From Candidatus Daviesbacteria bacterium RIFCSPHIGHO2_02_FULL_39_12 (GTDB lineage: Bacteria > Patescibacteriota > Microgenomatia > Daviesbacterales > UBA10151): a stretch of 41,358 nucleotides of DNA. The position numbers and the translations under genes are program-made. Below the pieces are notes generated by a model. That model was not told the DNA's origin. It did no database searches and was given only the letters and a program-made list of their open reading frames with translations. The DNA lies in contig MFCX01000032.1 of NCBI GenBank assembly GCA_001777055.1, positions 1 to 41,358 on the forward strand, read 5' to 3'. Positions 1,299-40,517 of the stretch are shown piece after piece. The stretch's first letter is position 1. Each line of letters starts with the position of its first letter.

Positions 1299-2435
1299 AT
1301 GGTCAAAGCGGGGATTGTGGGTCTCCCGAATGTAGGGAAGTCAACATTATTTAATGCCCTTTTAAAAAAGAGGGTGGCTTTGAGCGCTAACTATCCATTT
1401 GCTACCATTGAGCCAAATATTGGGGTTGTTGCTGTGCCGGATGCCCGCCTCAGCAAGCTAGGCGAGCTGGTAAAAGAGGAGGAACATATGGATCAAATGC
1501 CTCCCCTGGTACCGGCAGTAGTCGAATTCGTCGACATTGCGGGTTTAGTTAAAGGCGCTTCAACCGGCGCAGGTTTGGGTAATCAGTTTTTATCACATAT
1601 AAGAGAGGTGGATGCTATTTTGCATGTAATCAGGGATTTTGAGGATGTTGAAGTAATTAGGGAAGGCAGTATTAGTCCTGATGAGGATAAATTGACTATA
1701 GAAATAGAATTGGGGTTGGCTGATCTGCAGACTATAGAAAAAGTTCAAAGTTCAAAGTTCCCCGGCCTCGCTCCGCGAAGCCACGCCAAAGGCGGGCGAA
1801 GCGGGGCGGGCAAAGTTCAAAGCGACAATTTAAAATTCAAAGTTTCTGCAATAGAAAAAATCAGAGTAGTCTTAAATGCAGGGCAAATGGCAAATGCAGC
1901 AAATTTAACAGATGACGAACAGGAGGTGGTTCGGGAATTACATTTACTTACACTCAAGCCAATCTTATATGCCTATAATGTTTCCGAAGCAGAGTACGCA
2001 GATAAACTGCGAGATTCTTCGTTAATCACTCAGAATGACAAGTTTGTTATATGTGCAAAGGTTGAGGAAGAGCTAGCTGATTTGACAGAGGAAGAAAGAA
2101 TTGAGTACTTAAAAGAGTTAGGAATTGAGGAGACGGGTTTGGAGAGATTAATTAAAAAGGCCTACTTTTTTTTGGGGCTAATCTCATTTTTAACAGCTGG
2201 CAAAAAAGAAGTTAGGGCTTGGACTATAAAGCGGGGAACTAAAGCTCCACAGGCTGCAGGAGTAATTCATACTGACTTTGAGAAAAAATTTATAAGAGCA
2301 GAAGTTGTAGAGTATGGCAAATTAATAGAAGCAGGCTCTCATTCGGCTGCTAAAACAAAAGGCTGGGTAAGAACTGAAGGTAAAGATTATATTATGCAAG
2401 ATGGAGATGTTGTGGAATTTTTAATTGGGAGTTAA
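1299..2435 (+). CDS. ychF: ribosome-binding ATPase YchF (Obg-like GTPase family)
   Basis: G1 motif GLPNVGKST, DIAGLVKGAS and NQFL are present. The C-terminal TGS-type region reads AWTIKRGTKAPQAAGVIHTDFEKKFIRAEV. The helical insert region carries a repeat-derived segment (see repeat 1740-1845). Confidence 0.93.
   Translation: MVKAGIVGLPNVGKSTLFNALLKKRVALSANYPFATIEPNIGVVAVPDARLSKLGELVKEEEHMDQMPPLVPAVVEFVDIAGLVKGASTGAGLGNQFLSHIREVDAILHVIRDFEDVEVIREGSISPDEDKLTIEIELGLADLQTIEKVQSSKFPGLAPRSHAKGGRSGAGKVQSDNLKFKVSAIEKIRVVLNAGQMANAANLTDDEQEVVRELHLLTLKPILYAYNVSEAEYADKLRDSSLITQNDKFVICAKVEEELADLTEEERIEYLKELGIEETGLERLIKKAYFFLGLISFLTAGKKEVRAWTIKRGTKAPQAAGVIHTDFEKKFIRAEVVEYGKLIEAGSHSAAKTKGWVRTEGKDYIMQDGDVVEFLIGS
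1740..1845. repeat. in-frame composite repeat inside ychF: AAAGTTC heptamers flanking a GC-rich imperfect palindrome
   Basis: AAAGTTC x3 (1740-1760), then cccggcctcgctccgcgaagccacgccaaaggcgggcgaagcggggcggg, then further caaagttc / aaattcaaagtt copies. It translates as KVQSSKFPGLAPRSHAKGGRSGAGKVQSDNLKFKV. The 12-mer cctcgctccgcg (1766-1777) recurs in galU at 27464-27475. Confidence 0.7.
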
Positions 2436-3445
2436 AACTTATCTTTGGGCCGGAATTGATGAGATTCAATTTCATAATATGCTCCTTTTGTTACTCCTTT
2501 TTTTCTAATAAACCCACTATTTTGTAGCTTTTTCAAATCATAACGTAAGGTTCTTTCATTTACCGCCATAAACCTTCTTCTAATTTCATCAAAACTGACT
2601 AATTTGTGATCCTCTATGATACTTAGAATCTCAGCCCTCCTTGGAAGAAGGTAGTCTACGGCTTTTGATTGTTGTTTTGCTAAAACTTCTCTTTTGCCAT
2701 CTTCTGCGCTTTTAGCAATAACTTCCAGCATAAATTCCAAATAATCAGTAGTGTCTTTTTCTGGTTCATCTAAGGATCTATAATAATTATTTCTTTCTTG
2801 GTCTAAGTATTCCTCTAGGGCAAGTAGACCCTTCATTCCATAACCGCCTTTGGCCAAGATTGCCAACAAAAGTAATCTGCCAACTCTACCATTACCATCC
2901 AAAAAGGGATGAATTTTTTCAAAAATATAATGGGCAAGACAGGCTCTTATGGGAATAAATTGCTCCTTATTACTATTTATAAACATAAATAATTTATTTA
3001 TATGGGAGATAATCTGACTTGGTTTGGGAGGTAGGTAAATAGCAATACCAGCAGTGTTAAAAATAGCACTACTTTCTGTTCTGAATTTCCCCAAATCGCT
3101 TTTTTGAACAATTTCTTCTAGTACAATTTGATGAAAATGCAAGATATCTTTGAGACTTAACTCTTTTGCACTTCTTTGATAAATCAAATTTAAGCCTTTT
3201 AAAATATTGAACACTTCTTTTTTCTTTTGATCCTGAGAGGATGTTTTAGGTAATTGATCTAAGGTTAAATCGTTTCCTTCAATACGAGCAGAAAAAAGTG
3301 AGCTTTTAAGGGTGGATTGTCTTCTGATATTCATTTCAATTTCAGGAGGGATTGAAACAGAATTGATTACTTCTTTACTTGATTCAATTGAAGCAAGGAG
3401 TTGTGAAATTTTAGGGATGAGAGTGTATTTTGGAGGAATTAACAT
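2432..3445 (-). CDS. Fic family protein (putative AMPylase) with N-terminal inhibitory helix and C-terminal wHTH
   Basis: HPFLDGNGRVGRLL matches the Fic motif HxFx(D/E)GNGRxxR. SARIEG matches the (S/T)xxxE(G/N) inhibitory motif. The basic C-terminal tail resembles a winged helix. Confidence 0.9.
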   Translation of the reverse strand: MLIPPKYTLIPKISQLLASIESSKEVINSVSIPPEIEMNIRRQSTLKSSLFSARIEGNDLTLDQLPKTSSQDQKKKEVFNILKGLNLIYQRSAKELSLKDILHFHQIVLEEIVQKSDLGKFRTESSAIFNTAGIAIYLPPKPSQIISHINKLFMFINSNKEQFIPIRACLAHYIFEKIHPFLDGNGRVGRLLLLAILAKGGYGMKGLLALEEYLDQERNNYYRSLDEPEKDTTDYLEFMLEVIAKSAEDGKREVLAKQQSKAVDYLLPRRAEILSIIEDHKLVSFDEIRRRFMAVNERTLRYDLKKLQNSGFIRKKGVTKGAYYEIESHQFRPKDKF

Positions 3446-3533: not shown

Positions 3534-4927
3534 CTCATTGAATAATGAGCATGAAACGTCTTTTAAAAATCGATAGGTTTTAGATTAATTTTGTCAAATA
3601 ATTTAGTCTTTTCTTCATCCATGATACTAGCATATTCATTGTCAGATTGCTGCATGGAAATTTGATCAAGTTGGTTAAAAGTAATTCCTGGTTTTAAATA
3701 TTTTTTGGCATTAGGAATATTCTTTAATGCCTCATATGGGGTGAGGTAGGTTTTGTATATTTTCTTCTGTTTACCTTTAGAGTTTGTGGTAATGGTAGCA
3801 AACCCACAAGGCCTATGGAAGTTAAGATATGGGTTAAAAACCTTTAAGTAAAAGTCATTAATCTCTGGGGCATATTTCTGATGGATGTAGAAATACCCCA
3901 TGTGTTTTCTGATGATTGAGCCATTTTTGCTCTCAACTAAGGCATTGTCATTTGTTTGTCTGGCTCTGGATTTAGTCAGTCTGATTAAGAGTTTGTTTAA
4001 AAGTCGGGCTACAGTTTTGTTGATGTATTCAGAGCCGTTATCTGCATGAAACTCAATGATGATAAATGGGTATTGCTCAATGATTAACTTTAAAATTGGT
4101 TCCAGGTAGGATTCAGAGATTTGTTCCACTGAAGCAATGATTTCCCATTGAGTTATCTCATCAACTGAGTTGATGTGGTAAACACCTTTGGTATACTTTT
4201 GTCCACCAGATTGTCCTTTATCTACCAAATCTGTGGCTAAATCACCCTGATGGACAGTATCTATCCTGATATATCCGGGTTTACCTTGAGGCTCCGGTTT
4301 TGCCCTTTCTCCAATATTTCTCTGGACTGCCTGGGTGTTTTTAAAGGTTAAATTTTTAGATAAATATATTCTGGTAGTTCTTAACCGATAGATTGTGGCA
4401 ACTGAAATATGACTGATGCTTTCATACTCAGTTTTACCATATTTTTGGTACTCCCTGATTAAAATCTTCTGAGTAGCAGGACCGTTAAGTCTTTGGTGAA
4501 CATTGTCAGTTTTACACAAAAGGACAATATCCCCCGGAGAATATCTAGTTGGGAAAGAATGTCTCTCATACTCTACAAAGGCCAGCCTACCCTTTAAATA
4601 TTTAGCGATTAATCTTGAGAGTTGGGCATTTGAATAACCGGTAATCTTTTGGATATATTCCCTGACTTCTCCTCTGTCACCTTTCCTTAACTTTCTGAAA
4701 TTAAACCTCACTAAAACTTCCTTTACCCATTCATACTTTTGTTTCTTGGAACCCCCTGAAAACTTAACAGGCAGGTTTCCATTTAGGAATTTCCCCAGAG
4801 CATTAAAGTCATTTAAGTTTGTATCAATCATAGTTATATTCATAACCTATGATTTTACAAGACCTTAGCTTCTACATGCTCATCTTGTACTGGAATTACC
4901 AGTTATTTCATGCTCATCTTGTATGAG
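3534..4927 (-). mobile_element. insertion sequence carrying one DDE transposase; boundaries approximate
   Basis: A 12-bp terminal inverted repeat pairs ATGAGCATGAAA (3545-3556) with TTTCATGCTCAT (4906-4917). Both ends also carry CTCAT-N5/6-ATGAG mini-palindromes (3534-3549, 4913-4927). The right end has a 15-nt direct repeat catgctcatcttgta (4875-4889, 4909-4923). Confidence 0.5.
3563..4843 (-). CDS. DDE-type transposase/integrase (rve-like catalytic core)
   Basis: The D, D, E contexts IRIDTVHQGD ... FHADNGSEYIN ... NALVESKNGSIIRK are typical of retroviral-integrase-type cores. The N-terminal region is HTH-like. The IS family is not assigned. Confidence 0.8.
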   Translation of the reverse strand: MNITMIDTNLNDFNALGKFLNGNLPVKFSGGSKKQKYEWVKEVLVRFNFRKLRKGDRGEVREYIQKITGYSNAQLSRLIAKYLKGRLAFVEYERHSFPTRYSPGDIVLLCKTDNVHQRLNGPATQKILIREYQKYGKTEYESISHISVATIYRLRTTRIYLSKNLTFKNTQAVQRNIGERAKPEPQGKPGYIRIDTVHQGDLATDLVDKGQSGGQKYTKGVYHINSVDEITQWEIIASVEQISESYLEPILKLIIEQYPFIIIEFHADNGSEYINKTVARLLNKLLIRLTKSRARQTNDNALVESKNGSIIRKHMGYFYIHQKYAPEINDFYLKVFNPYLNFHRPCGFATITTNSKGKQKKIYKTYLTPYEALKNIPNAKKYLKPGITFNQLDQISMQQSDNEYASIMDEEKTKLFDKINLKPIDF

Positions 4928-6899: not shown

Positions 6900-8036
6900 A
6901 TGCAAATACCCCAAACAGTCAGAGTAGAAAAAGATGTGATTGTCAGAATCCATAGAAATTTAAGGGGTAAAGGCAGCTTAAATGTGGCCAAAAATCAACA
7001 GGTGAGCCCTTCTGATATTTTGGGCACTGCCCAACTTTCTTCCGGGTTTAGAATCTTAAACTTGGCCAAGCTTTTACAAGTTGCGCCCCCAAACGTAGAA
7101 AAGTTTCTAAAAAGGGGTCTGGGACAAAGGATTTATAAAGGGGAGTTACTGGCCGGCAAAAGCGGCAGGTTGTTTGGCAGCCAATATATAGTGACTTCTC
7201 CAAGTGATGGTGTGCTGGATTTTTTAAACCCTGCGACAGGGGAATTGAAGCTCACTTTTTTACCCAGGAAAATAGATCTTCCGGCAGGTGTTTACGGGAT
7301 CGTTGAGGAAGCAGATTATGAAAAAGGGTTGGTAGTAATTAGAACTCAGTCAACCTTAATACATGGATTATTCGGCTCCGGGAAACTGCGGGATGGGAAT
7401 TTGCAAATAGTCAGTAAAAGAGATGAGTTTATTTCCAACTTGTCAATATTATCAAAACTAACCGATCAAATAATTGTATTAGGCAGTATAATTTCCAAAG
7501 AAGCCATAGGAGAGGCAATCTCAGCAGAAACTAACGGCATAATTTGCGGCGGAATTGCGGCCGGAGACTATAAAGCGATGGCAGGAGGCAGATTAAGCTT
7601 TCCCCACAAATTGGAAAACGATATCGGGATTTCTGTTGTAGTTTGTGAAGGCTTTGGCGCTGCTGCGATCGGGGAAGATATTTATCAGGTTCTTGTGCAA
7701 CATAACGGCCGGTTTGCTTCCATTAACGGCAACAGGGCAACAATCTACTTACCTTCTTTTGAATCCAGTAGTATAATACGGGTAAAGAATACTAATCTGC
7801 CTTCTTTAGCGGATACGTCCACTGCCGAGGAGGAAAGCATAAGAAGGGTTGAGTTGAAACCGGGTTTGAAAGTGAGGGTAGTTGGCAATTCATTTTTGGG
7901 TGAGCAGGGGAAGGTTTTGGTCATTGATAAAACAGAAACTATTTTGCCTTCCGGCATTAAAGATGTGATGGTAACAATAGCAACCAGCCGACGCAAAATC
8001 CAAATTCCCGTAAACAATCTGGAAGTGATAGAATAA
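6900..8036 (+). CDS. hypothetical protein (378 aa) with possible barrel-sandwich and C-terminal KOW-like segments
   Basis: VTSPSDGVLDFLNPATGELKL resembles lipoyl/hybrid-barrel motifs. LKPGLKVRVVGNSFLGEQGKVLVIDK is KOW-like. This is a weak, motif-level call only. Confidence 0.6.
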   Translation: MQIPQTVRVEKDVIVRIHRNLRGKGSLNVAKNQQVSPSDILGTAQLSSGFRILNLAKLLQVAPPNVEKFLKRGLGQRIYKGELLAGKSGRLFGSQYIVTSPSDGVLDFLNPATGELKLTFLPRKIDLPAGVYGIVEEADYEKGLVVIRTQSTLIHGLFGSGKLRDGNLQIVSKRDEFISNLSILSKLTDQIIVLGSIISKEAIGEAISAETNGIICGGIAAGDYKAMAGGRLSFPHKLENDIGISVVVCEGFGAAAIGEDIYQVLVQHNGRFASINGNRATIYLPSFESSSIIRVKNTNLPSLADTSTAEEESIRRVELKPGLKVRVVGNSFLGEQGKVLVIDKTETILPSGIKDVMVTIATSRRKIQIPVNNLEVIE

Positions 8037-8048
8037 TCTATTTAAATT

Positions 8049-9266
8049 ATGAAAATTTTGACAAAAATGGATGTTAAATTAGCGCTTATTGCCATTTTAA
8101 CCTTTCTTTTGGGCTGGCAACTGGGGCATCGTGACATCCAAATAAAATGGGCAAAATTTAATCCGACGGTTTCTGTTGTAAATCGCGATGTGCCTAAAAA
8201 TATTGATATAGACTTTAAATTATTTTGGGATACCTGGGATTTGCTTTCTAAAAACTATATTGATAAGACAGCCCTGAATCCGGAAAAGTTATTTTACGGG
8301 GCAATTTTCGGCATGGTAGCGGCAGTAGGCGATCCTTACACAGTTTTTCTGCCTCCTGATCAGCAAAAATCTTCCCAAGAAGAATTAAGCGGCAGTTTCG
8401 AGGGAGTAGGCATCCAGCTTGGTTTTAATAAAGAGAAAAGATTGGTGGTTATCGCACCGCTTGAGGGAACGCCGGCAAAAGCAGCCGGGATTAAACCCCA
8501 GGATATGATTGTCAAGATAGACGAAAAAGATACCGCCGGGATGAGTTTGCCGGAAGCTGTCAAGCTGATCAGAGGAGACAAACGCACAAAGGTTAATTTA
8601 ACAATCCTCCGGGGTGAAGATACAGAGACAAAATCTTATACTTTAATCCGCGATACAATTATCGTAAAAAGCGTTGAAGCAAGTTTTAAGAACACAAAGA
8701 ACGATAAGAGCGTAGCTGTGATTAAACTGTCCCGCTTCGGTGAGAAGACCAGTGATGAGTGGGCTCAGGCTGTTTCTGAAATAACTGACAAAGGGGTGAA
8801 CGGTATTATTTTGGATATGAGGAACAACCCGGGAGGTTTTTTGGAAGGGGCTGTTTTTATTGCTTCGGAATTTTTAGACGGAGGCGATGTGGTTTTACAG
8901 GAAAATAATCAGGGTCAAAGGACGCCTTTTAAGGTTAACAGGGAGGGGAAATTGACAAAAATCCCCTTGGCGGTTTTAATTAACAAGGGTTCAGCTTCGG
9001 CATCGGAGATTGTGGCGGGAGCTTTGCAGGATCGCAGGCGGGGTACTTTGATCGGGGAAAAATCATTTGGCAAAGGTACTATCCAGGAAGCGCAGGATTT
9101 GTCTGAAGGGACAGGGATTCATATTACCGTGGCCAAATGGCTGACTCCCAACGGCAGGTGGGTTAATGACACTTTAGGTCTTGAGCCGGATGTTACAATA
9201 GAAATGGATAAAAATGATGAAAGTAAGGATTTGCAGTTGGAAAAGGCGCTGGAACTACTGGACTAA
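8049..9266 (+). CDS. carboxyl-terminal processing protease (peptidase S41) with PDZ domain, membrane anchored
   Basis: N-terminal TM segment. PDZ region GVGIQLG...VIAPLEGTPAKAAGIKPQDMIVKID. S41 catalytic region LINKGSASASEIVAGALQD...GEKSFGKGT. Confidence 0.9.
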   Translation: MKILTKMDVKLALIAILTFLLGWQLGHRDIQIKWAKFNPTVSVVNRDVPKNIDIDFKLFWDTWDLLSKNYIDKTALNPEKLFYGAIFGMVAAVGDPYTVFLPPDQQKSSQEELSGSFEGVGIQLGFNKEKRLVVIAPLEGTPAKAAGIKPQDMIVKIDEKDTAGMSLPEAVKLIRGDKRTKVNLTILRGEDTETKSYTLIRDTIIVKSVEASFKNTKNDKSVAVIKLSRFGEKTSDEWAQAVSEITDKGVNGIILDMRNNPGGFLEGAVFIASEFLDGGDVVLQENNQGQRTPFKVNREGKLTKIPLAVLINKGSASASEIVAGALQDRRRGTLIGEKSFGKGTIQEAQDLSEGTGIHITVAKWLTPNGRWVNDTLGLEPDVTIEMDKNDESKDLQLEKALELLD

Positions 9267-23403: not shown

Positions 23404-23421
23404 CGCCCACTCGGGACTCTG

Positions 23422-23503
23422 TGCCGAGAGAGGGAGTCGAACCCTCATGCTTTTTGGGCACACGATTTTGAGTCGTGCGTGTCTGCCATTCCACCACCTC
23501 GGC
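23422..23503 (-). tRNA. tRNA-Leu (anticodon CAA), class II with long variable arm, CCA not encoded
   Basis: The reverse complement reads GCCGAGG-TG-GTGGAATGGCAGACAC-GCACGA-CT-CAA-AA-TCGTGT-GCCCAAAAAGCAT-GAGGG-TTCGACT-CCCTC-TCTCGGC-A. The acceptor stem has 7 bp (one G-U), the T-loop is TTCGACT, and the anticodon loop is CTCAAAA. Confidence 0.9.
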
Positions 23504-31686: not shown

Positions 31687-32014
31687 GAATAATTTGCTCA
31701 GGCAGCAAAAAGAGGTGGAAAAGAATCTGAAAGAAGTATCAGAGGATGATCCGGCTAAACCCCAGATACTGGCGGAAACTTCCGAACCCGGCACGGATGC
31801 TTATATTGCCGATTCCCACATCAAAACAATAGTTTTAGAAAAACAATTAAAAAAAGCAAATAACAGCATTAAAACTGCTTTACAAAGAATCAAACAGGGA
31901 ACTTACGGAAAATGTGATAGATGCGGCCACAACATAGAAATCGGCAGGCTCTTAATTATGCCGATGACATCACTTTGTGTTTCCTGTTCCAAGAAAACCT
32001 CTAAAAGACTTTAA
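31649..32014 (+). CDS. DksA/TraR-family C4 zinc-finger protein
   Basis: GTYGKCDRCGHNIEIGRLLIMPMTSLCVSC gives CxxC-N17-CxxC after a coiled-coil region. Confidence 0.85.
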   Translation: MLNFPTKTINYIKNNLLRQQKEVEKNLKEVSEDDPAKPQILAETSEPGTDAYIADSHIKTIVLEKQLKKANNSIKTALQRIKQGTYGKCDRCGHNIEIGRLLIMPMTSLCVSCSKKTSKRL

Positions 32015-32358
32015 TCTTTTTGCCAGGGCAAACGGGCTTTAGGATTACTCCAGAAACTGGCCAGGTATGCCCCAACCGCGAATCCGCCTGTCAGAAACAC
32101 CCAAAGGTTTATTCCGCTTAAATCAGCATTCCAGGGCAAAGTTAATCCGCCGCTGCCTGTTGCCGCTCCTAATACATACAACCCTAAGACTATATTTGTA
32201 AATGCCCAAACCACATTTAACACCGGTGAAGAAACCCTTTTAAAGGGTGTCATATGAGTCTGGCCGGTAATGCCTTTAACTAAATGCGGGACAGAGTTAA
32301 AAAGAAAAAACCCTGCCACAAAATACCAAAGAAGTTCCAATTTTTCACCCCCTTTCAT
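32011..32358 (-). CDS. small membrane protein (115 aa)
   Basis: ATG start and 3-4 hydrophobic segments. It converges on the dksA-like gene with a 4-nt overlap. Confidence 0.55.
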   Translation of the reverse strand: MKGGEKLELLWYFVAGFFLFNSVPHLVKGITGQTHMTPFKRVSSPVLNVVWAFTNIVLGLYVLGAATGSGGLTLPWNADLSGINLWVFLTGGFAVGAYLASFWSNPKARLPWQKD

Positions 32359-32399: not shown

Positions 32400-32465
32400 T
32401 CAACAGCCCTAAATTAATCCTGGTATTGGAATGCATATCTCCTTCAACCTGTATCCAGGATGGTT
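32400..32465. repeat. R1: orphan copy of the surface-protein gene 3' end (cassette boundary repeat)
   Basis: The 39-nt core at 32421-32459 differs by 1 nt from R3/R4. On the minus strand it reads WIQVEGDMHSNTRINLG, with a stop two codons upstream. Confidence 0.75.
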
Positions 32466-32476
32466 AAGATTTTATG

Positions 32477-32505
32477 TTGACTCCAGTCAAGTTTTATGAT
32501 AATAT
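32477..32505 (+). promoter_or_regulatory. candidate promoter of the AAA+ ATPase gene with flanking inverted repeat
   Basis: TTGACT (32477-32482), a 17-nt spacer, then TAATAT (32500-32505). TTGACTCCA (32477-32485) and TGGAGTCAA (32514-32522) are reverse complements. GGAG lies 7 nt before the ATG at 32526. Confidence 0.4.
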
Positions 32506-32525
32506 TTTTTGAGTGGAGTCAAAAT

Positions 32526-33737
32526 ATGGATATACTGATTGAAATTTACCACCGTCTTTTAAAAGAGACAGTGCCTTTATACAGAAGGAAATTTTACGAT
32601 GATTTTCAAATGGACAGCCGATTTGTCGGTGTCATCGGGGCCAGAGGAGTAGGTAAAACTACCTTTCTTGTAAACTACTTAAGGGATAATTATCTCAATT
32701 CTCAGCAAGCTTTATATATATCAGCAGATAATCTTTATTTTGTTGAACATAATCTTTTTGGGACAGTTGACCGGTTTGTTAAAGAATTTAATGGTCAGAT
32801 TATCTGCATTGATGAAATTCATAGATATAAAGATTGGGAGCAAGAGCTAAAGAATATTTATGATTCTTTTCCTAGGCTATCCGTGATTTTCTCGGGTTCC
32901 TCAAGTATTAATCTGGCTCACGGTAAAACTGATTTATCCAGAAGACTGGTTTTAAAAACTATGTATGGTTTTTCTTTCCGGGAATTTCTGGAAGTACAAA
33001 CTCATAAATCATATCCTTTGCTAACCTTTGATAATCTGATTGGTGATTATTACCGGTATGCTCAAAATTTTGCCCAAACGCCAAAGCTTTTGGGGTACTT
33101 AAAAGAATACCTGAAACAAGGCTACTATCCCACATTTCTCGAGCTTAAAAGCTATGAAAGCTATCAAAATACCCTCCAAAATATTGTTGATAAAGTTATC
33201 TACGAAGACATTAGCAGTTTTTATTCCCTTCACACATCAAATCTTGAGACTCTTAAAAAAATTATTTACTTTTTCGCAACTTCCCAGCCCGGCAGTATTA
33301 ATATAAACAGATTGGCCCAGAATCTAAAAAAAGATCATACAACCATTGCAGAATATATTCAAATCTTAAAAGATACAGGACTTTTACGCTTTCTTTTAAA
33401 AAACAAACAGGGATATGCTTTAGTGCGGGATGCTGAGAAAATATTCCTTGACAATACCAATCTTTTATATGCTTTAAACAGAGAAATAGGCAAAGAGCCC
33501 CCAACCGGTCTGATGCGTGAGATGTTTATTGTTTGCACTCTCCAAAATGCCGGATACTTTGTATTCTCAAAAGAGTCAGCAGATATTGAATCCGGCGGTT
33601 ATTATTTTGAAATCGGAGGAAAAAACAAAACTTCTGCTTTTATTCAAAAAAGCAGAAAAGGCTACATAATTAAAGATGATATTTTGATCGGAGATAAGAA
33701 AAACATCCCCCTTTACTTATTTGGGTTTCTCTCCTGA
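32526..33737 (+). CDS. AAA+ superfamily ATPase (COG1373-like, AAA_14 + DUF4143-type architecture)
   Basis: Walker A GARGVGKTT and Walker B-like ICIDEIHRY. The length and C-terminal part fit this family. The start is placed at 32526 because the promoter elements lie inside the longer ORF. Confidence 0.8.
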   Translation: MDILIEIYHRLLKETVPLYRRKFYDDFQMDSRFVGVIGARGVGKTTFLVNYLRDNYLNSQQALYISADNLYFVEHNLFGTVDRFVKEFNGQIICIDEIHRYKDWEQELKNIYDSFPRLSVIFSGSSSINLAHGKTDLSRRLVLKTMYGFSFREFLEVQTHKSYPLLTFDNLIGDYYRYAQNFAQTPKLLGYLKEYLKQGYYPTFLELKSYESYQNTLQNIVDKVIYEDISSFYSLHTSNLETLKKIIYFFATSQPGSININRLAQNLKKDHTTIAEYIQILKDTGLLRFLLKNKQGYALVRDAEKIFLDNTNLLYALNREIGKEPPTGLMREMFIVCTLQNAGYFVFSKESADIESGGYYFEIGGKNKTSAFIQKSRKGYIIKDDILIGDKKNIPLYLFGFLS

Positions 33738-33746
33738 ATATTTTAA

Positions 33747-33812
33747 CTTTTCCATTCTCAATTCTCCATTCTCAATTCCTATGGCGGTCCTCCGGATAGG
33801 TTAATTTTGGTA
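33747..33812. repeat. R2: partial copy (distal half) of the boundary repeat, with an internal 14-nt duplication
   Basis: ccattctcaattct-ccattctcaattcctatggcggtcctccggataggttaattttggta matches the first half of R3. The minus strand reads ...KINLSGGPP*. Confidence 0.7.
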
Positions 33813-33838
33813 AAAGTTGCTTATGTTAAAATGATTTT

Positions 33839-34195
33839 ATGGACGAGGGATGGAAAATAGAGTATTATAAAACTACCGGTAAAAAATCTCCTGTGGAAGA
33901 ATTCATCTTTAGCTTAGATGTTAAAGCACAAAATAAAATTGTTGATATGCTAACTTTACTGAAAGAATTCGGGATTACTTTAAGTCTGCCTCACGTTAAG
34001 AAAGTAACCGGAACTTCTTTGTGGGAACTTAGAATTTTAGGCAGTAACAATTTTAGATTCTTTTATATCGTTCAGACAGGAAAGATTTTTCTGCTGCTGC
34101 ATGGATTCCAAAAGAAAAAACAAAAAACTGACCAAAGGAAGATAGATATAGCTCTTAAGAGATTAGCTGAGTATCAACTAAGATCTGGAAATTAA
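33839..34195 (+). CDS. RelE/ParE-superfamily toxin, HigB/Gp49-like
   Basis: About 118 aa, with SPVEEFI...LWELRI...FRFFY...LLLHGFQKKKQKT typical of Gp49/HigB-like toxins. It is followed by an XRE antitoxin (toxin-first order). Confidence 0.8.
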   Translation: MDEGWKIEYYKTTGKKSPVEEFIFSLDVKAQNKIVDMLTLLKEFGITLSLPHVKKVTGTSLWELRILGSNNFRFFYIVQTGKIFLLLHGFQKKKQKTDQRKIDIALKRLAEYQLRSGN

Positions 34196-34232
34196 CACTT
34201 GTAATATTACAATTTTGTGATATTATTCAATC

Positions 34233-34505
34233 ATGGACGATTTTGAAAAAATGAAAAAAAGATTGCTTAAAAACCCTGAGTTTAAAAAACTCTACGAAGA
34301 TAGTCGGCCTGAGTTCGAGATTGCAAGGGCAGTTATCCGTGCTCGTATAGAAAAGGGTTTGACACAAAAGCAGCTGGCAGAGAAATTGCATACAGGGCAA
34401 TCAGTAATTTCTCGTGTTGAAAGAGCCAATACTACACCATCTTTATCATTCCTCAAAAGACTCGCATCAGCCTTAAATACAACCCTTCAGGTGCAATTTA
34501 AGTAA
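34233..34505 (+). CDS. XRE-family HTH antitoxin (HigA-like)
   Basis: GLTQKQLAEKLHTGQSVISRVERANTTPSLSFLKRLASAL is a classic Cro/C1-type HTH. Confidence 0.85.
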   Translation: MDDFEKMKKRLLKNPEFKKLYEDSRPEFEIARAVIRARIEKGLTQKQLAEKLHTGQSVISRVERANTTPSLSFLKRLASALNTTLQVQFK

Positions 34506-34523
34506 AAGTGTATAAATTCTTTC

Positions 34524-34636
34524 CCTTTTCCATTCTCAATTCCTATGGCGGTCCTCCTGACAGATCAATTTTGGTATTGGAATGCATATCTCCTTCCACC
34601 TGTATCCAGGACTGCCATGGGGGGGCAATAACTGTA
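34524..34636. repeat. R3: full orphan copy of the surface-protein gene 3' end
   Basis: The 39-nt core at 34572-34610 is identical to R4. The minus strand reads PPWQSWIQVEGDMHSNTKIDLSGGPP*. There is an internal inverted repeat ATGGCGGTCCT (34545-34555) / AGGACTGCCAT (34608-34618). Confidence 0.8.
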
Positions 34637-34645
34637 TGAGATATA

Positions 34646-34674
34646 TTGACAAATCTTATGAATAGAGGTACATT
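34646..34674 (+). promoter_or_regulatory. candidate promoter of the abiE-like pair
   Basis: TTGACA (34646-34651), a 17-nt spacer, then TACATT (34669-34674). Confidence 0.3.
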
Positions 34675-34718
34675 GATTAATGTAACTTAACAAAAATGTT
34701 AAGTATATATAACTAACT

Positions 34719-35417
34719 ATGGATTTAATCGCAGCTCAAACATTAAGCCAAAAACTCCAAATTAGTCTAGAACAGGTAGTGCGGGAAGAGTATGAAATAC
34801 TGCTTCTTAAAGAAATTTTTGAAAGTGAATTTGGTGCCAATTTGGTTTTTAAAGGTGGTACAGCTTTGAGATTGGTATACAACTCGCCGCGCTTTTCAGA
34901 GGATTTGGATTTTACTTTGATAAAAGATTTTGACAGGGAGGGATTTATTTCTGAAGGAAAGAACTCATTCACTAGTTTTTTAAAAGAACTTGAGCATACA
35001 TACCCGGCAATCATATCTGTCGAGGCAAAAGAGAAATATTACACAATTTTTGGCTTAATTAAGATTAAAGAAGATTATCTAAATCTTGCTTTTTCAATTA
35101 AAGTTGAAGTTTCTAAGAGGAAAGGGGAATGGATAAAAGATAAAGATTATAGCGACAAGATTATTAGAAGTGAGGTAACGCCTTTAACTGTTTTAGTTCA
35201 GGTAGCGCAGCTTGAGCGGATACTTGAGGAAAAAGAAGATGCCATTAAAAACAGAAAAGCGCCCAGGGATATTTTTGATTACTGGTACATCAACCAGCTG
35301 TTGAAGAAGGAAGTAAAAGTAAGATTTGAGGGTTACGATAAAACACACACTAAGGCGGAGCTGCACAGGTTACTATCAAGAACATATTGGAGGATTATTG
35401 ATTCATGGTTAGAGTGA
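34719..35417 (+). CDS. AbiEii/AbiGii-family nucleotidyltransferase toxin (DUF1814-like), short form
   Basis: LVFKGGTALRLVYNSPRFSEDLDFT matches the conserved N-terminal NTase motif of AbiEii toxins. Confidence 0.78.
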   Translation: MDLIAAQTLSQKLQISLEQVVREEYEILLLKEIFESEFGANLVFKGGTALRLVYNSPRFSEDLDFTLIKDFDREGFISEGKNSFTSFLKELEHTYPAIISVEAKEKYYTIFGLIKIKEDYLNLAFSIKVEVSKRKGEWIKDKDYSDKIIRSEVTPLTVLVQVAQLERILEEKEDAIKNRKAPRDIFDYWYINQLLKKEVKVRFEGYDKTHTKAELHRLLSRTYWRIIDSWLE

Positions 35418-36079
35418 ATAACTTCTTCTCTGCGAGAAAAAGACCTAAAGATATTGAACTGATTAAAAAGCTAAGAGGCTTTGACAAGTCTTATTTTACT
35501 GTAGCTGATTTAGAAAAAGTGTTGAATCTTAAAAGGAGCAGTCTTTATGTGACTTTAAATAGGTTGGTCAAATCAGGGGTGTTGGTTAGATTGGGAAAAG
35601 ACCTTTATTCGCCTTTCACAGAGGCTCCTGATATAGAAAAGATCGCCAACGAGCTATATTTTCCTTCTTACCTATCTTTCGAACAAGCATTATCCCAATA
35701 TGGTATTTTATCGCAAATTCCTTATGTCAAAACCTTTGCTACCATCAGGCCTACTAAAAAAATGGTTATTGCCGGCGTAGATGTAGAGTTTAGCCATTTG
35801 AAAAAACAGCTATTTTTTGGCTATAATCTCAGGAACGGTAAATATATTGCCGAGAAGGAAAAAGCATTACTAGATCAACTCTATATGGTAAGTATGGGCA
35901 AAAGGAGTATTAACATTGAGGAATTGGATATAAGAGATATCAACAAACTTAAGTTGGAAGATTATGCTAGAAAATTTCCTGCCCAGATGAAACCTTTGCT
36001 TAGTCGGATAAAAAAATACATGGGAACTACACCTGTGACACTTGAGGGTGAGGGGAGGATAGTTTGGGGCAAACGATAA
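35405..36079 (+). CDS. AbiEi-like antitoxin / wHTH transcriptional regulator
   Basis: The N-terminal wHTH YFTVADLEKVLNLKRSSLYVTLNRLVKSGVLVRLGKDLY resembles AbiEi_4-type antitoxin domains. It overlaps the NTase gene by 13 nt. Confidence 0.65.
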   Translation: MVRVNNFFSARKRPKDIELIKKLRGFDKSYFTVADLEKVLNLKRSSLYVTLNRLVKSGVLVRLGKDLYSPFTEAPDIEKIANELYFPSYLSFEQALSQYGILSQIPYVKTFATIRPTKKMVIAGVDVEFSHLKKQLFFGYNLRNGKYIAEKEKALLDQLYMVSMGKRSINIEELDIRDINKLKLEDYARKFPAQMKPLLSRIKKYMGTTPVTLEGEGRIVWGKR

Positions 36080-36085
36080 GGTTAT

Positions 36086-36175
36086 CTGTTCTCAATTCCT
36101 AAGGTCCTCCTGATAAATCAATCCTGGTATTGGAATGCATATCTCCTTCCACCTGTATCCAGGGCTGCCATGGGG
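36086..36175. repeat. R4: boundary repeat forming the actual 3' end of the 848-aa surface-protein gene
   Basis: The core is at 36125-36163. It encodes ...SPWQPWIQVEGDMHSNTRIDLSGGP*. Confidence 0.8.
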
Positions 36176-38645
36176 AAATAACATTAAAAGTTTTAGATAC
36201 ACAGTTGTTATTCTCACTGGTTTCAGTAATGACTCTACTAGTATCAGCGCAAAAATATACAGTATGATTTCCAGCAGTAGCTGCCCTTGGGCCATATCCA
36301 TTTGCGGCCGAGCTATAATTAGTGGTTTGTCCGGCATTAAGGTACCAGTTAATATCGAAACTGGCACGTATGGCATCAATGTTAGTGGTATAGCAATTGG
36401 TTTCAGTACCTGCATCCCGACAAAAGTGGCTGTAAAAATAACCCGCATTACTTATTCCGTTATTGAGTAAGGTAGCCATAAAATATAGACTATCACCAGC
36501 ATAAATATTGCCTTCATCTGGAATAGGTGTTAACTCACTGCCTCTGTATATATTGATTGTCGGATCTGGATCAAGATCAGGAAGAGGAGCAGGAGCAATT
36601 GTAAAAGGAACTTCTCTACTGCAATTATCGGAATAACTTGTTTCAGCAAAACGATTAGTTGCATTAGCACAGATTTTAAACGCATAATTTCCAGCACTTT
36701 GCAAAGAATTGCTGTTTGTTCCATTTAAGTCATCCCATCGTTCATTTTCTTCGCCTGTTCTTTTTGTTAGATTGTCCGTAGTTTTATCAAAAGGCACTTG
36801 ATAAAATGAGGTATCGCTGCCAGTTGTTTTTTTGATATAAAGCCTGGTTATTGAACTAGGGGCATTTAATCCCCAGCCTTGTTCTTTAACAGTTCCCCAG
36901 AAACTCATATTACCGCCTAATTCAGAATTTGCAGGAGAAAAGCCGGGTTCAACAACGACCAAATTAGGAGGGCATTGCTGCGCAGAGGAAATCCAACCAC
37001 TGGATGGCGAAGAAGCTTCCCAAGCATCATCATAATTATAACCTCTAATTAGCAGAGAATGATAGGTAGCATTGTTACTAGTATTATATATTTCTAAGTC
37101 ATTATAAGCATAGCTTCTGTTAGCAGCTCCTGATATATCTGTATCATATCTACAGCCGTTGCGGGCATCTCCGGTATTATCAGTACCTCTAAAGCATTCC
37201 CGCCCTATAGCATCAGTAAAAGAAAAGTCAATCCAGGCTTTATAGTGATGGAAAGCATAGTTATTATTGTCAGATGTTGTCCAGTTAACACCAATATTCA
37301 ATCTATTATCATCATAAGGAGGCCCGCATGAAGGATTATACTCAAGAGATACAAAGTCCCCTGTTGCTCCAGTTGTGACTACACCACCTATCTGTCCAGT
37401 TCCGGGTGCCGGATTTGAAAAAGATGTGAGGCAGGTTGTTATTACTGGTGGTGATGTTGTTGGATTTACATAATCGCCATCTATGGCAGATTTAATTTTT
37501 GTCTCAAGTGTCCCATTTGACGTATATTCTACACAATTCATAGTTCTTGTTAGAGAGGTTCTAGAAGAAGGATCATTTAACATACTGCTAGTTCCATCCT
37601 TACCCAGCCTCCAACTAATCTCTGCATATGAAGGTATATTATTAATTGTGACAGTGCCAATTACATTTTTGCCAATTGGCTCATTGAGAGCATTTTTACA
37701 GTCTGTGCCGGTAGGGACTGCGGTTACCGTACAGTTGGGAGTGGTTGGTGGGGGGGCAGCAGTTAAATCTAAACTAAATTCAGTATAATGTGACACACTG
37801 TTGTCTGCGGCTGTGCCTGTAACCTTGATAGTACGGTTGCCTGTGGTAGCAGTGCTGCTGGCAGTTATAGTTAGTGTGCTGGAACAGGTATCACTAGGAG
37901 TACAGGAGGTGGGAGAAAAGGAAAATGTCACGCCGCTACCGCTTAAGGTAGAGGCAGCTAGGGAAACACTTTGGGTAGTGCCTTGACTGCGGGTTATGGA
38001 AATGCTGTTTGTGACAGATGATCCTTGCTGGACGGTTTTATCTCCACCATTACTTAAACTGAAATTAAATGGAGGGGTTATTTCAGCCCCAGTACAGTCG
38101 TTGGTAGTTGTCTGGTATATGCTCCCTGTAATAATTGCATTGCGTTCCGAATCAAAATCACGTTCATCCGGGTCAGGCCCCAGGTCTGCCTGTACCTTGC
38201 CGCAAGGGTAACCAGGGTCGCTGATATTAAAAGTAAAGCTGTTATATGGCAGCGCATTTGTCCCTGCAGCGGGAACAGTATAATTGAAAACTGTTGCATA
38301 CTGGAGGTTGTTATAATCAGTGCTATTAGGGCTACAGTCTCCTCCGGCTCTGTTCTTACACCAAAAAGCGGAAAATCTTAAATTTACATTATTGTTTGTT
38401 TCATAACCTAAATAAGAGGTACTGGTATCATATCTGCAATAACTCCCGTCAGGATTTAAAACTGTTTTAAATCCTATTCTTGCAGTCCAATTTTTACCGT
38501 TTGTGCCGGTAACACCGGGAATTGTATCTGTTGCATCATTAAACTGTCCGCATAGACCTCTCCACCCCTGATTTTCTGCATATGAAGTTTTGGGCAGAAT
38601 AAATAATAAGGTTATTAGTAATAGGAGCTTGATTATTTTTTTCAT
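36099..38645 (-). CDS. large secreted Cys-rich surface protein with Ig-like/CARDB-like repeats
   Basis: Signal peptide MKKIIKLLLLITLLFILPKTSYA. It has a Thr/Ser-rich Ig-like module (TLTITASSTATTGNRTIKVTGTA), a PPPTTP linker, and two C-terminal modules with the CARDB-like pattern (GNYAFKICANATN...SDNC; GNHTVYFCADTS...NNNC). Confidence 0.8.
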   Translation of the reverse strand: MKKIIKLLLLITLLFILPKTSYAENQGWRGLCGQFNDATDTIPGVTGTNGKNWTARIGFKTVLNPDGSYCRYDTSTSYLGYETNNNVNLRFSAFWCKNRAGGDCSPNSTDYNNLQYATVFNYTVPAAGTNALPYNSFTFNISDPGYPCGKVQADLGPDPDERDFDSERNAIITGSIYQTTTNDCTGAEITPPFNFSLSNGGDKTVQQGSSVTNSISITRSQGTTQSVSLAASTLSGSGVTFSFSPTSCTPSDTCSSTLTITASSTATTGNRTIKVTGTAADNSVSHYTEFSLDLTAAPPPTTPNCTVTAVPTGTDCKNALNEPIGKNVIGTVTINNIPSYAEISWRLGKDGTSSMLNDPSSRTSLTRTMNCVEYTSNGTLETKIKSAIDGDYVNPTTSPPVITTCLTSFSNPAPGTGQIGGVVTTGATGDFVSLEYNPSCGPPYDDNRLNIGVNWTTSDNNNYAFHHYKAWIDFSFTDAIGRECFRGTDNTGDARNGCRYDTDISGAANRSYAYNDLEIYNTSNNATYHSLLIRGYNYDDAWEASSPSSGWISSAQQCPPNLVVVEPGFSPANSELGGNMSFWGTVKEQGWGLNAPSSITRLYIKKTTGSDTSFYQVPFDKTTDNLTKRTGEENERWDDLNGTNSNSLQSAGNYAFKICANATNRFAETSYSDNCSREVPFTIAPAPLPDLDPDPTINIYRGSELTPIPDEGNIYAGDSLYFMATLLNNGISNAGYFYSHFCRDAGTETNCYTTNIDAIRASFDINWYLNAGQTTNYSSAANGYGPRAATAGNHTVYFCADTSRVITETSENNNCVSKTFNVISPWQPWIQVEGDMHSNTRIDLSGGP

Positions 38646-39247
38646 TTGGCTTGGCTTGTAAAATCAATATCTCCAACAGAGATTATTTGATCCCGATTGT
38701 CTGTCAACAGAAATATTAAATTATTATTGTCATAAGTGGTGATTAATTCTTTTGGTACTTTGGTGATTTCCTCACCCTGTTTATACTGATGTTTTATATC
38801 AGGATTGCCTTTAATAAAGTAAAAGGCTTTAAGATTTTTGTCTTTATTAACCAACTCTATCTGAAGGAAAGTTTCATTGTTTGGTTTGGCTGCCACAGAT
38901 CTGGTCCGCAATATTATCTCTCCATCAAAAACAGCATAAATTGGAGTGTTTGCTTCAAGTTTTGCTCCCAGGCCCCAAAAAGCTTTATCCTTAATAACCG
39001 GTTTTGCGCCGGAGCAAAATACAGCTGAAGACGGACAGGGTAACTGGATTTTCGGCTTAACCGAAGGTAAGACAGAAGGTTGAGTAGTTGGTGGTTGTTT
39101 AGGCAATATTGGTGGGCGGATAAGCGCGTAAATGATTATGAATACAGGGCTGACCGCCAGCAGGATAATAAATAACTTTTTTATTACAGGCGGTATTTTT
39201 CTTTGGGATTGAATCACGAGTACCTCCGGCTGCGGGTCATCGGCCAT
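38642..39247 (-). CDS. membrane-anchored hypothetical protein (201 aa)
   Basis: One N-terminal TM segment after a short cytoplasmic tail. It has a 4-nt overlap with the surface-protein gene. Confidence 0.6.
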   Translation of the reverse strand: MADDPQPEVLVIQSQRKIPPVIKKLFIILLAVSPVFIIIYALIRPPILPKQPPTTQPSVLPSVKPKIQLPCPSSAVFCSGAKPVIKDKAFWGLGAKLEANTPIYAVFDGEIILRTRSVAAKPNNETFLQIELVNKDKNLKAFYFIKGNPDIKHQYKQGEEITKVPKELITTYDNNNLIFLLTDNRDQIISVGDIDFTSQAK

Positions 39248-39305
39248 GTCAGCTTACATTGTAGAAGGATTTGCTCTAAAATGTCAAACAACAATTCAGC
39301 GCTTT

Positions 39306-40517
39306 TTATGGCCGATGTGAAGAATAATATTTAAGATTAACATCAACAAAATTTATAACGGTTACATATATGTTACCCAACTGATCTCGATGTTTTTCAG
39401 CCCATATTTTCGTCCACAGAACCTTATCTATACCGGGTTTATTATCAAGTTTATCTTCTCCCACAAGTATTTCCCCTCCCTCTCTCGCCTCAGACTTTTT
39501 TAAAGTATGGATAATGCGCGCCTCAGCTAAGAATGGTTGGATGATTTCGCCTAGACTTCGTTTATATGGGAATTGAGCTTCGTTGAATTGTACAATACCT
39601 CTTTTTGGATCATAAGTGGAAAAGTATCCTTTCGGTCCAAAGTACAAATTAGATATACCCTTTAAACCATATTCATCACTAGTTAATAGGGGAATCATTT
39701 CCGGATCCATAAGGTTTATCAGTCTGATTGCCTCTTCAGTAGTGGCAATATTACCCAAATTAAAACTCAAGCCGGATTTCCCTCCTGTTAATAAAAATAA
39801 TCTTGGTTCATTTTTAGGACCAGGGAGAATTCTAAAAGTTTTAAAAACTCTTTGGTCTGGATTTTTCTCAAAGGTTTCTACTTCATCAGGATTTAATGGG
39901 GTAAAAAAATCCGGCGCATTATTTAATCCTTCATCACTTAATAATTCCCTTAAATTTTTAACCACTTTTTGATGAGGCGTTAATTCTGTAATAGATTTTT
40001 CAGGGAAGGTTTGGCTGACTATTGCTGGTTCATCCGGATTAGTTGCAATTTCACCCAATACATCGGGATTTTCAGCAAGTATGTCTGCCGCTTTTGCCTC
40101 TGCCTCGCTGGCATCTGCCTGTACTCCTGCCACTTCTGTTTCTTTCTCATCTTCTTCAGTTTCTTCATCTTCTGCAGTAGATATAGTGGTAAGCCCTGAT
40201 TCCTGAGCATGAGCAATAGCAGAGGAATTATCAAGCAGCCTTTCCTGTACCATCGGGGTTATCGCATAACCAACTGCTGTAAGACCTGCTGTTGCTCCTG
40301 ATTGTGCTGCTAAAGAAAGGGAAAACCGTTCTCTGCCGCTTACTCCATGAAGAAAAGTATCTATATTATAAATGAATTCACTGAATCTGCCTTTTGTAAA
40401 GTGGTCGAGTGTTCCGAGGATGTTTTTTTTACCCTCTTGACAGGGAATCCCGTCTGGTGTATCGTTAATATCACGACTTGGAAGTTCATATCTTCCAAGC
40501 CTATTTTCGTAAGACAT
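39306..40517 (-). CDS. hypothetical protein (403 aa) with central acidic low-complexity region
   Basis: ATG ORF, first gene of the minus-strand three-gene block. It contains an EDEETEEDEKETE acidic stretch. No motif recognised. Confidence 0.6.
   Translation of the reverse strand: MSYENRLGRYELPSRDINDTPDGIPCQEGKKNILGTLDHFTKGRFSEFIYNIDTFLHGVSGRERFSLSLAAQSGATAGLTAVGYAITPMVQERLLDNSSAIAHAQESGLTTISTAEDEETEEDEKETEVAGVQADASEAEAKAADILAENPDVLGEIATNPDEPAIVSQTFPEKSITELTPHQKVVKNLRELLSDEGLNNAPDFFTPLNPDEVETFEKNPDQRVFKTFRILPGPKNEPRLFLLTGGKSGLSFNLGNIATTEEAIRLINLMDPEMIPLLTSDEYGLKGISNLYFGPKGYFSTYDPKRGIVQFNEAQFPYKRSLGEIIQPFLAEARIIHTLKKSEAREGGEILVGEDKLDNKPGIDKVLWTKIWAEKHRDQLGNIYVTVINFVDVNLKYYSSHRP

Follow-up and report, generated by a model that had tools for sequence, protein, structure and literature searches.

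Toxin-antitoxin and defence modules separated by orphan copies of a surface-protein gene end in Candidatus Daviesbacteria

Tandem elements at gene ends

In staphylococci, composite islands of the staphylococcal cassette chromosome (SCC) consist of tandem cassettes at the 3' end of rlmH (orfX), and their direct repeats contain the integration site. SCC is mobilised by the ccr serine recombinases, and some cassettes (pseudo-SCC) are ccr-less. Bacteria of the candidate phyla radiation (CPR) have tiny genomes and few recognisable mobile elements, yet they exchange defence and toxin-antitoxin (TA) genes. The locus described here lies on contig MFCX01000032.1 (assembly GCA_001777055.1) of an uncultured groundwater bacterium, Candidatus Daviesbacteria bacterium RIFCSPHIGHO2_02_FULL_39_12; the whole stretch of DNA that was analysed, 41,358 nt, is called the window. 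In it three TA/defence modules (A, B and C) stand behind a gene for an 848-aa surface protein, with orphan copies of the gene end between them. The structure recurs with different cargo at two loci in three genomes, one such site is uninterrupted, and the junctions at the core of the repeated sequence are mosaic. Compared with SCC, both the target gene and the lineage differ, and nothing comparable to ccr was found.

[quoted passage not shown] As there, the units in the window are in tandem and have no integration or transfer genes of their own (the intervals contain only TA/defence genes), the 3' end of the target gene is part of the direct repeats, the gene end appears to be regenerated, and the presumably newest unit adjoins the gene. 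Four repeats (R1 to R4) bracket modules A to C, and R4 is the functional gene end. The units here, however, are single TA/defence modules of 0.7-1.4 kb and not decayed ICEs, the extent of the repeat differs from junction to junction, and the target is a peptide tag of different genes and not one housekeeping gene. No integrase was found, and the scanned loci yielded no integrase relic that would mark a unit derived from an ICE or from an integrative and mobilizable element.

Tandem islands also occur at tRNA and tmRNA genes, as in the tycheposons of Prochlorococcus (10.1101/2020.12.28.424599) and the ssrA islands of Dehalococcoides (PMC3146451). There too successive integrations push older elements inward and leave partial target copies between them, and the hosts are streamlined, with few classical mobile elements. 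However, tyrosine recombinases are encoded in those islands or in some of their neighbours, and the targets are RNA genes, whereas here the target is protein-coding and no recombinase was found. The orphans of cdiA-CT/cdiI and rhs-CT/rhsI (PMC4927057) are likewise displaced, truncated 3' ends of a large surface-protein gene, in which a short conserved stretch homologous to the main gene permits homologous recombination. They comprise a variable toxin domain and an immunity gene in the orientation of the main gene, whereas in the window only the last ~25 codons are copied and the intervening genes are unrelated, convergent TA/defence modules. A polymorphic-toxin orphan array was rejected as a description of the locus: the orphans are only about 10-47 codons long, and TA/defence genes on the opposite strand lie between them.

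Chromosomal integron arrays share with the window unidirectional cassettes, a repeat at each 3' end and the TA cargo typical of such integrons, which may stabilise an array. The locus could on these grounds be a cluster of attC sites lacking an integron-integrase (CALIN); the repeats would then be sites of attC type, and an IntI encoded elsewhere would recombine them in folded single-stranded form. This explanation is effectively refuted. When both strands of R1, R3 and R4 were folded as single strands, z-scores against shuffles were -0.5 to +1.0 (R2, a truncated copy, folds somewhat better than its shuffles), and no GTTRRRY or RYYYAAC motif stands at the repeat boundaries, so the attC-like bulged hairpin raised by the first-pass annotation is not supported. 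The 11-bp inverted repeat noticed in R3 does exist, as part of a 14-bp stem, but the stem is not kept in R4 and the fold is no better than shuffled. Neither an integrase domain nor IntI was found in the window ORFs that were scanned (most open reading frames of at least 100 aa), and the repeats are protein-coding and vary at synonymous sites. The locus is set apart from the arrays above by its single minimal units, its peptide-tag target common to different genes, its unequal repeats, its CPR host and the failure to find any recombinase or relic.

Array layout and the C-terminal tag

The repeated unit consists of a short 3' untranslated region (UTR), a stop codon, the tail-coding segment and a 39-nt core, in some cases with a little of the gene body (Table 1). 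The core, TGGTATTGGAATGCATATCTCCTTCCACCTGTATCCAGG, is exact at 34572-34610 (R3) and 36125-36163 (R4) and has 1 mismatch at 32421-32459 (R1), as had been read from the sequence at the start. No further match at up to 10 mismatches was found in the window, and 100 shuffles gave 0 matches. All four copies have the same orientation, each interval holds one module, and the last stop codon of each module is at most 10 nt from the following repeat. On the minus strand, R4 translates to ...SPWQPWIQVEGDMHSNTRIDLSGGP and a stop (as the end of the 848-aa ORF, ...PWQPWIQVEGDMHSNTRIDLSGGP and a stop), which bears out that it is the real 3' end of this gene. R3 translates to ...PPWQSWIQVEGDMHSNTKIDLSGGPP (in the feature list, ...TVIAPPWQSWIQVEGDMHSNTKIDLSGGPP), R1 to PSWIQVEGDMHSNTRINLGLLTNG and R2 to TKINLSGGPP, each before a stop codon. 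R1 also reads PSWIQVEGDMHSNTRINL..., and its frame continues into the promoter of a neighbouring 115-aa gene. The view that R1, R3 and the half copy R2 are orphan gene ends holds, with their extents refined by gapped and ungapped alignment.

R2 and the left part of R3 are identical at 46 of 51 positions, and beyond the stop codon R2, R3 and R4 have 16-28 nt in common. The segment common to all four copies is only ~16 nt; the repeats are of unequal length (50-126 nt), and every junction has a different extent. A 14-nt tandem duplication (TCCATTCTCAATTC twice, at 33751-33778) is present in the 3'UTR-like part of R2 and absent from R3 and R4.

The array is not an assembly artefact, a possibility that the first-pass annotation had left to be checked, because its 4.4 kb are 100% identical (0-1 single-nucleotide polymorphism) in at least 12 contigs assembled independently from separate samples with different assemblers. 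Two Logan contigs (L013 and L018) end within the core, which is to be expected where a 39-nt repeat exceeds the k-mer.

Table 1. Features of the array and its flanks in the window
Feature	Position	Strand	Description
115-aa hydrophobic membrane-protein gene	32011-32358	-	No family assignment; conserved left flank of the variable region
R1, distal orphan tail	32410-32460	-	11 nt + 39-nt core, 1 mismatch
Module A	32461-33737	+	AAA_14 + DUF4143-like ATPase; coding sequence probably from 32526, ORF opens 32496
R2, orphan half copy	33737-33812	-	~28 nt 3'UTR-like, stop codon, ...TKINLSGGPP, core = TGGTA only
Module B, HigBA-like block	33815-34505	+	Gp49/RelE-type toxin 33839-34195; HTH_3 antitoxin 34233-34505
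R3, fullest orphan	34515-34640	-	Full tail and core, with stop codon, 3'UTR-like part and ~30 nt of gene body
Module C	34641-36079	+	AbiEii toxin 34719-35417; AbiEi antitoxin 35405-36079
R4, functional 3' end of surface gene + short 3'UTR	~36082-36186	-	Stop codon 36099-36101
848-aa secreted/surface protein gene	36099-38645	-	N-terminal signal-like sequence, Ig/CARDB-like repeats; Pfam CARDB 1e-5
Two upstream genes, same operon (201 aa, 403 aa)	38642-40517	-	No family matches

Searches with Pfam, PADLOC and NCBIfam confirmed the earlier assignment of one self-contained module to each interval (a COG1373-like ATPase, a HigB/HigA-like pair and an AbiEii/AbiEi pair). Module A matches Pfam AAA_14 (9e-29) and the PADLOC candidate PDC-S01 (1e-32), and its product is called as 403 aa in other assemblies. 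Module B, in which the toxin gene is upstream, matches PF05973 (9e-22, toxin) and PF01381 (2e-15, antitoxin); by these domains it belongs with type II TA systems of the HigBA/RelE type, with putative toxicity. Module C matches AbiEii (PF08843, 4e-21) and AbiEi_4 (PF13338, 4e-7) in Pfam and AbiEii (4e-22) and AbiEi (9e-28) in PADLOC, and its domains and gene order, toxin then antitoxin, mark it as a predicted type IV TA system of the AbiE type. Modules A and C each come with their own match to a sigma-70-like promoter. The site in module A (32477-32505) overlaps an operator-like inverted repeat (32473-32490/32509-32526), and the promoter scan placed that of module C at 34646-34674. All module genes are on the plus strand, facing the surface gene convergently. 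Another gene for an AAA_14/DUF4143 ATPase (28% identity to module A) was observed ~6 kb past the right end of the window (L001:190-1350), where it adjoins a HAD hydrolase and sits at the contig end.

It is conceivable that the orphans have a function, either as silent donors for gene conversion of the C-terminus (pilS-like) or in antisense regulation by read-through transcripts of the modules. The core is perfect in the non-coding R3 and 38/39 in R1, the last 8-10 residues vary among the copies, and no terminator is predicted between the module genes and R2 to R4, which follow directly downstream of them. However, the variable part is only a few residues long, R2 is without the core, and R1 would not be in a module transcript because it lies upstream of the module A promoter. 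A function of either kind is very improbable.

The 848-aa protein ends in the tag PW[IV]Q..GD.HSNT.I[DN]L, which has no hydrophobic anchor. Its sole full-length homologue in 5.8 billion proteins (P0002, 47% identical) ends ...DPWIQADGDVHSNTKIDLSGGPP and a stop; the DNA beyond it is unrelated and has a terminator-like hairpin. P0041, of the CARDB+PA14 type and ending ...PWVQFNGDIHSNTNINLPTAGQ and a stop, came from an exhaustive phmmer search with residues 320-848 as query, in which P0002 and P0041 were the only tail-bearing proteins among the best 150 of 216 hits. A tail-only profile search gave no matches; the tail was rejected as a widespread sorting signal on these results. The tag is also carried by a 657-aa protein and a CARDB/PA14 protein at two related loci, L021 and L024, described below. 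In the functional copies W, Q, G, D, H, S, N and T are invariant while many synonymous codon differences are present, so selection acts on the peptide and not on the DNA. By blastp, the last ~21 residues are the only similarity of the L021 protein to the window protein and to the L024 protein; the window and L024 proteins have an additional Ig/CARDB-like stretch in common (121 aa at 35% identity). These comparisons indicate a genuine, conserved, short C-terminal tag on Daviesbacteria surface proteins that have little or no other similarity.

Related loci and junctions

Searches for further arrays relied on degenerate patterns of the tail. The first pattern was too strict and gave 0 matches in the genome and metagenome collections. 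A broader one matched 3 genome loci and 0 metagenome and 0 viral sequences; across 185,579 species genomes, the only loci besides L021 were L024 and L026. At L021 (GCA_964645555.1) the LGT is 79% identical to that of the window, and both flanks have ~80% nt identity around an entirely different middle. The order there is the 115-aa gene, His_Phos_1, MNT+HEPN, an orphan tail, a pair of a small ORF and AbiEii, and the end of the 657-aa surface gene. The orphan tail (7903-8046) reads ...ILPWVQFNGDVHSNTRIDLPLAP and a stop, and is 93-96% identical to the resident gene end except for a 141-nt in-frame gap; the 657-aa gene ends ...RIDLPLAPSEPL and a stop. A tail-like fragment within the His_Phos_1 gene (15/17 nt) was judged a chance match. 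NCBI assigns the LGT of GCA_964645555.1 to Candidatus Daviesbacteria, and by its LGT homologues the organism of the window also belongs to this CPR/Patescibacteria lineage.

The L024 locus, in the same genome as L021, is an uninterrupted site: its CARDB/PA14 gene ends ...NINLPTAGQ, and the stop codon overlaps the start of the next gene (ATGA). L026 (GCA_964432475.1) has this stop/start junction and the downstream gene, preceded only by an orphan of ~58 codons that adjoins an AAA_14/DUF4143 ATPase and an AbiE-like pair, both directed away from it. Judged from the sequence, L026 is the architecture of the window at a different locus. The six TA/defence modules of the three arrays are all convergent to the surface gene. 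Comparison with related genomes, which the first-pass annotation had proposed as a check, has thus yielded orphan tails with different cargo as well as a site without an insert. The conserved gene end appears to be a recurrent landing pad, with relatives bearing different modules at the same kind of site.

Some further observations concern these relatives. A 91-nt segment (L026:2330-2420) is nearly identical to the reverse complement of L024, with 1 mismatch, whereas the downstream proteins overall are only 53% identical; this island spans the tail end, the ATGA stop/start and the first ~20 codons of the downstream gene. The contig sets of L024-L026 (CAZYBP01 and CAYSNN01) carry the title 'uncultured Gammaproteobacteria bacterium', whereas the proteins and the synteny resemble those of Daviesbacteria; the label is probably wrong. 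In L021 a 30-nt element precedes the start codons of both MNT/HEPN (7094-7123) and AbiE (8137-8166). The two copies are 83% identical (TATCGTATG..TTTAGTCAA) and may be a shared promoter/operator or the 5' end of a cassette. A TTGACT...AGTCAA palindrome before module A of the window (32477-32490) is similar to this element.

The surface operon (window 36099-40517, L021:9072-13372) has no detectable DNA or protein similarity between the two genomes except for the ~21-aa tail, although the flanks are ~80% identical, and it is either hypervariable between relatives or horizontally replaced. This pattern would suit an explanation in which the operon is repeatedly replaced by DNA of relatives, with homologous recombination on the gene side and illegitimate recombination on the other. 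Each replacement would import the downstream module of the donor and leave the last part of the old gene as an orphan. The variable lengths of the orphans and their allele-like character (K/R and GGPP/GGP variants) agree with this, and it parallels the model for the displaced cdiA-CT/cdiI orphans (PMC4927057). However, illegitimate junctions should fall anywhere, and all five orphans end in the last 50-290 nt of the gene. Exactly one compact module is present in each interval, and three different modules abut the same ~20-28-nt 3'UTR, so that a site-preferring insertion step would still be needed. Serial replacement is rather improbable as the origin of the array.

On the left side, DNA synteny between the window and L021 stops at window 32404, next to a promoter-like site of the 115-aa gene (32403-32374, TTGACA-18-CATGAT); the 115-aa protein is 83% identical to its L021 counterpart. 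This gene and its promoter are present in at least 4 Daviesbacteria lineages and border a variable region every time. Divergence of all four lineages begins just upstream of ...TTTGTCAAC. In the fourth lineage (L034-L036) the sequence changes exactly upstream of the promoter, and L034 has a module-A-like promoter and the first 15 ATPase codons 21 nt from the flank, with no core (R1) between. Where this ATPase breaks off, an 83-aa ORF (L034:104-355) by eye resembles the helix-turn-helix N-terminus of a transposase. The idea that R1 is a native gene end in situ is weakened, with some uncertainty, as its last codons (LTNG and a stop) coincide with the conserved -35 region of the 115-aa gene promoter. 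Four more distant relatives found through LGT (L027-L030) have no synteny past dksA and were uninformative.

The junctions themselves are mosaic. Compared with L024, 9 of 39 core positions are mismatched in the L026 orphan, and 1 of 88 from the 3' edge of the core onward (Fisher p=9e-5); the orphan's core is nearer to that of L021 (3/39 mismatches). R3 and R4 differ at 0/39 positions in the core, against 6/48 and a 3-nt indel in the flanks (p=0.03). The K...GGPP ending (before the stop) of the real gene P0002 is also found in the left parts of R2 and R3, and R4 and the short left part of R1 have an 'R' type ending. On the gene-body side the orphans stop at different distances from the core end: -34, 0 and +30 nt in the window, beyond +70 nt in L021 and +60 nt or more in L026. 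All orphan boundaries lie within about -34 to +213 nt of the core, a clustering expected if the tail itself is the recombination site. The junctions suggest a single crossover between two tail-bearing sequences, in or near the core; a fixed-point site-specific crossover and random illegitimate junctions both fit them less well.

Origin and meaning of the array

The preferred reading, to which about as much credence as doubt is attached, is that the array arose by repeated recombination within the conserved coding segment at the 3' terminus of the surface-protein gene. Each event would insert one small, self-promoted, addictive module convergent to the gene and would bring or regenerate the whole of a gene end, from the tail codons through the stop codon to the short 3'UTR. 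The end present before would be displaced downstream as an orphan, R4 being the current end and R3, R2 and R1 those successively displaced. The recombination site would be the ~13-codon core that encodes the tag; since it is the only sequence common to otherwise dissimilar surface genes, it could serve as a portable patch of homology. Each insertion would probably be a single crossover (Campbell type), performed either by an unlinked site-specific recombinase or by the homologous recombination of the host. Addiction may protect the repeat-flanked modules: TA cargo would be expected to persist between direct repeats because its loss through repeat-repeat recombination would trigger post-segregational killing. 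The serial site-specific insertion with target regeneration that was originally proposed survives in part, as repeated insertion and a regenerated gene end fit the data and a fixed crossover point fits less well.

Several observations weigh against recombination in the tail. The gene-body-side boundaries of the orphans all differ and R2 is without the core, which is hard to reconcile with a single fixed crossover point. No excision, deletion or rearrangement variant was seen in ~20 contigs of the population, and the sampled population is therefore clonal for the array. A recombinase was found neither in the array nor in the 41-kb window nor in the flanks of the related loci. The totals are three arrays and one empty site, with few or no matches in the scans of large collections, and these numbers, together with the lack of excision evidence, limit what can be concluded. 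Finally, the HigBA block (window 33815-34505) is present at 76-85% nt identity in three other contexts (L031, L032 and L037) with no tail copy, and the repeats may have been made from the target at insertion and not brought by the element.

The HigBA block has the same ends across contexts: it starts 18-24 nt upstream of the ATG and includes the stop codon as its last part. Eight variants of its HigA antitoxin, 90-94% identical, are present on other contigs. In L031 and L032 it has neither a flanking repeat nor a tail copy. In L037 the block (82% identical to module B) lies between two copies of a 27-nt direct repeat, GTTATATCTATTCCG[G/A]TACAGTATCGT (46-72 and 784-810, 26/27 identical), which stand 4 nt before and 17 nt after it and are unrelated to the tail. 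This repeat contains a palindrome, CGATAC-A-GTATCG, and the contig is from SRR22388088, the same sample as P0002. The three contexts without a tail copy speak against the notion of a cassette made of ORFs plus their own 3' recombination site.

Because the HigBA block also stands in other contexts with no tail, in one of them (L037) between a different repeat, long target duplication stays a serious rival and the main one, although unlikely. Minimal modules would insert by a recombinase-independent or break-repair process that duplicates 27-285 nt of the target. Insertions near the 3' end would survive, one intact gene end being kept, and the repeats would be target-site duplications and not att sites. 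In its favour are the position of the block at two unrelated sites (the window and L037), in each case between direct repeats made of local sequence, the window repeats of ~66-76 nt at 2 nt and 9 nt from the block, the ~96% identity of the L021 orphan to the gene end over ~144 nt, and the failure to find a recombinase. However, R3 and R4 differ by ~10% in their flanks and not at all in the core, two tail types are combined in the L026 orphan, and L031 and L032 have no flanking repeats. The left end of R1 is unlike that of R2 and R3, so that an extra deletion would have to be assumed. To our knowledge, there is no prokaryotic mechanism that makes such long and variable duplications.

Other kinds of mobility were also considered. 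The only transposase-like gene in the window is a weak rve match at 3563-4843, in agreement with the first-pass annotation, which had placed no integrase or recombinase in the array and one transposase far from it. A transposon or insertion sequence was discarded, as the array contains no transposase and its repeats are long (50-126 nt) and unequal. A diversity-generating retroelement was also discarded: the mismatches between R3 and R4 are not specific to adenines (C/T, T/C, G/A and an indel are among them), the A-rich core shows none, and the window has no reverse transcriptase. An Xer-mediated dif module would have at each junction a 28-bp dif-like site, in which XerC and XerD arms surround a 6-bp spacer. 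By inspection, the core has no convincing resemblance to the E. coli dif consensus, which may not be that of the host lineage, and the weak palindromy of the core is not kept in the L021 or L024 tails. The remaining window is ordinary chromosome (ychF, rpsF-ssb-rpsR, release factor, hisS, dnaB, efp, lgt), and the Rfam/tRNA scan found only a tRNA-Leu (23421-23503), with nothing in the repeats. Between ychF and rpsF, a gene for a Fic/DOC-domain protein with a C-terminal winged helix-turn-helix (2432-3445) adjoins the rve-type gene, and the pair may be a small inserted islet.

The locus is a concrete, repeatable structure, at two loci in three genomes, and every acquisition is marked in it by an orphan gene end. 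Such a layout indicates a specific landing site at which the target gene is preserved, and it links the turnover of defence genes to hypervariable surface (probable receptor/adhesin) operons. It is tentatively proposed that a cassette platform with no linked recombinase exists in Daviesbacteria and perhaps in other CPR bacteria, with the 13-codon tag as its landing pad, the gene end regenerated at every insertion, and addictive cargo to lock the units in place. If this is true, an integron-like gene-capture function would be built on protein-coding sequence; the host's own recombination, an undescribed enzyme or an undescribed way of making long target duplications would carry it out. Should the insertion chemistry be recombinase-independent or new, it would be a mode of gene capture beyond integrons and integrase-borne islands. 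Under a more ordinary reading too, the orphan tails would be markers for the order of acquisition and for finding similar arrays in metagenomes.

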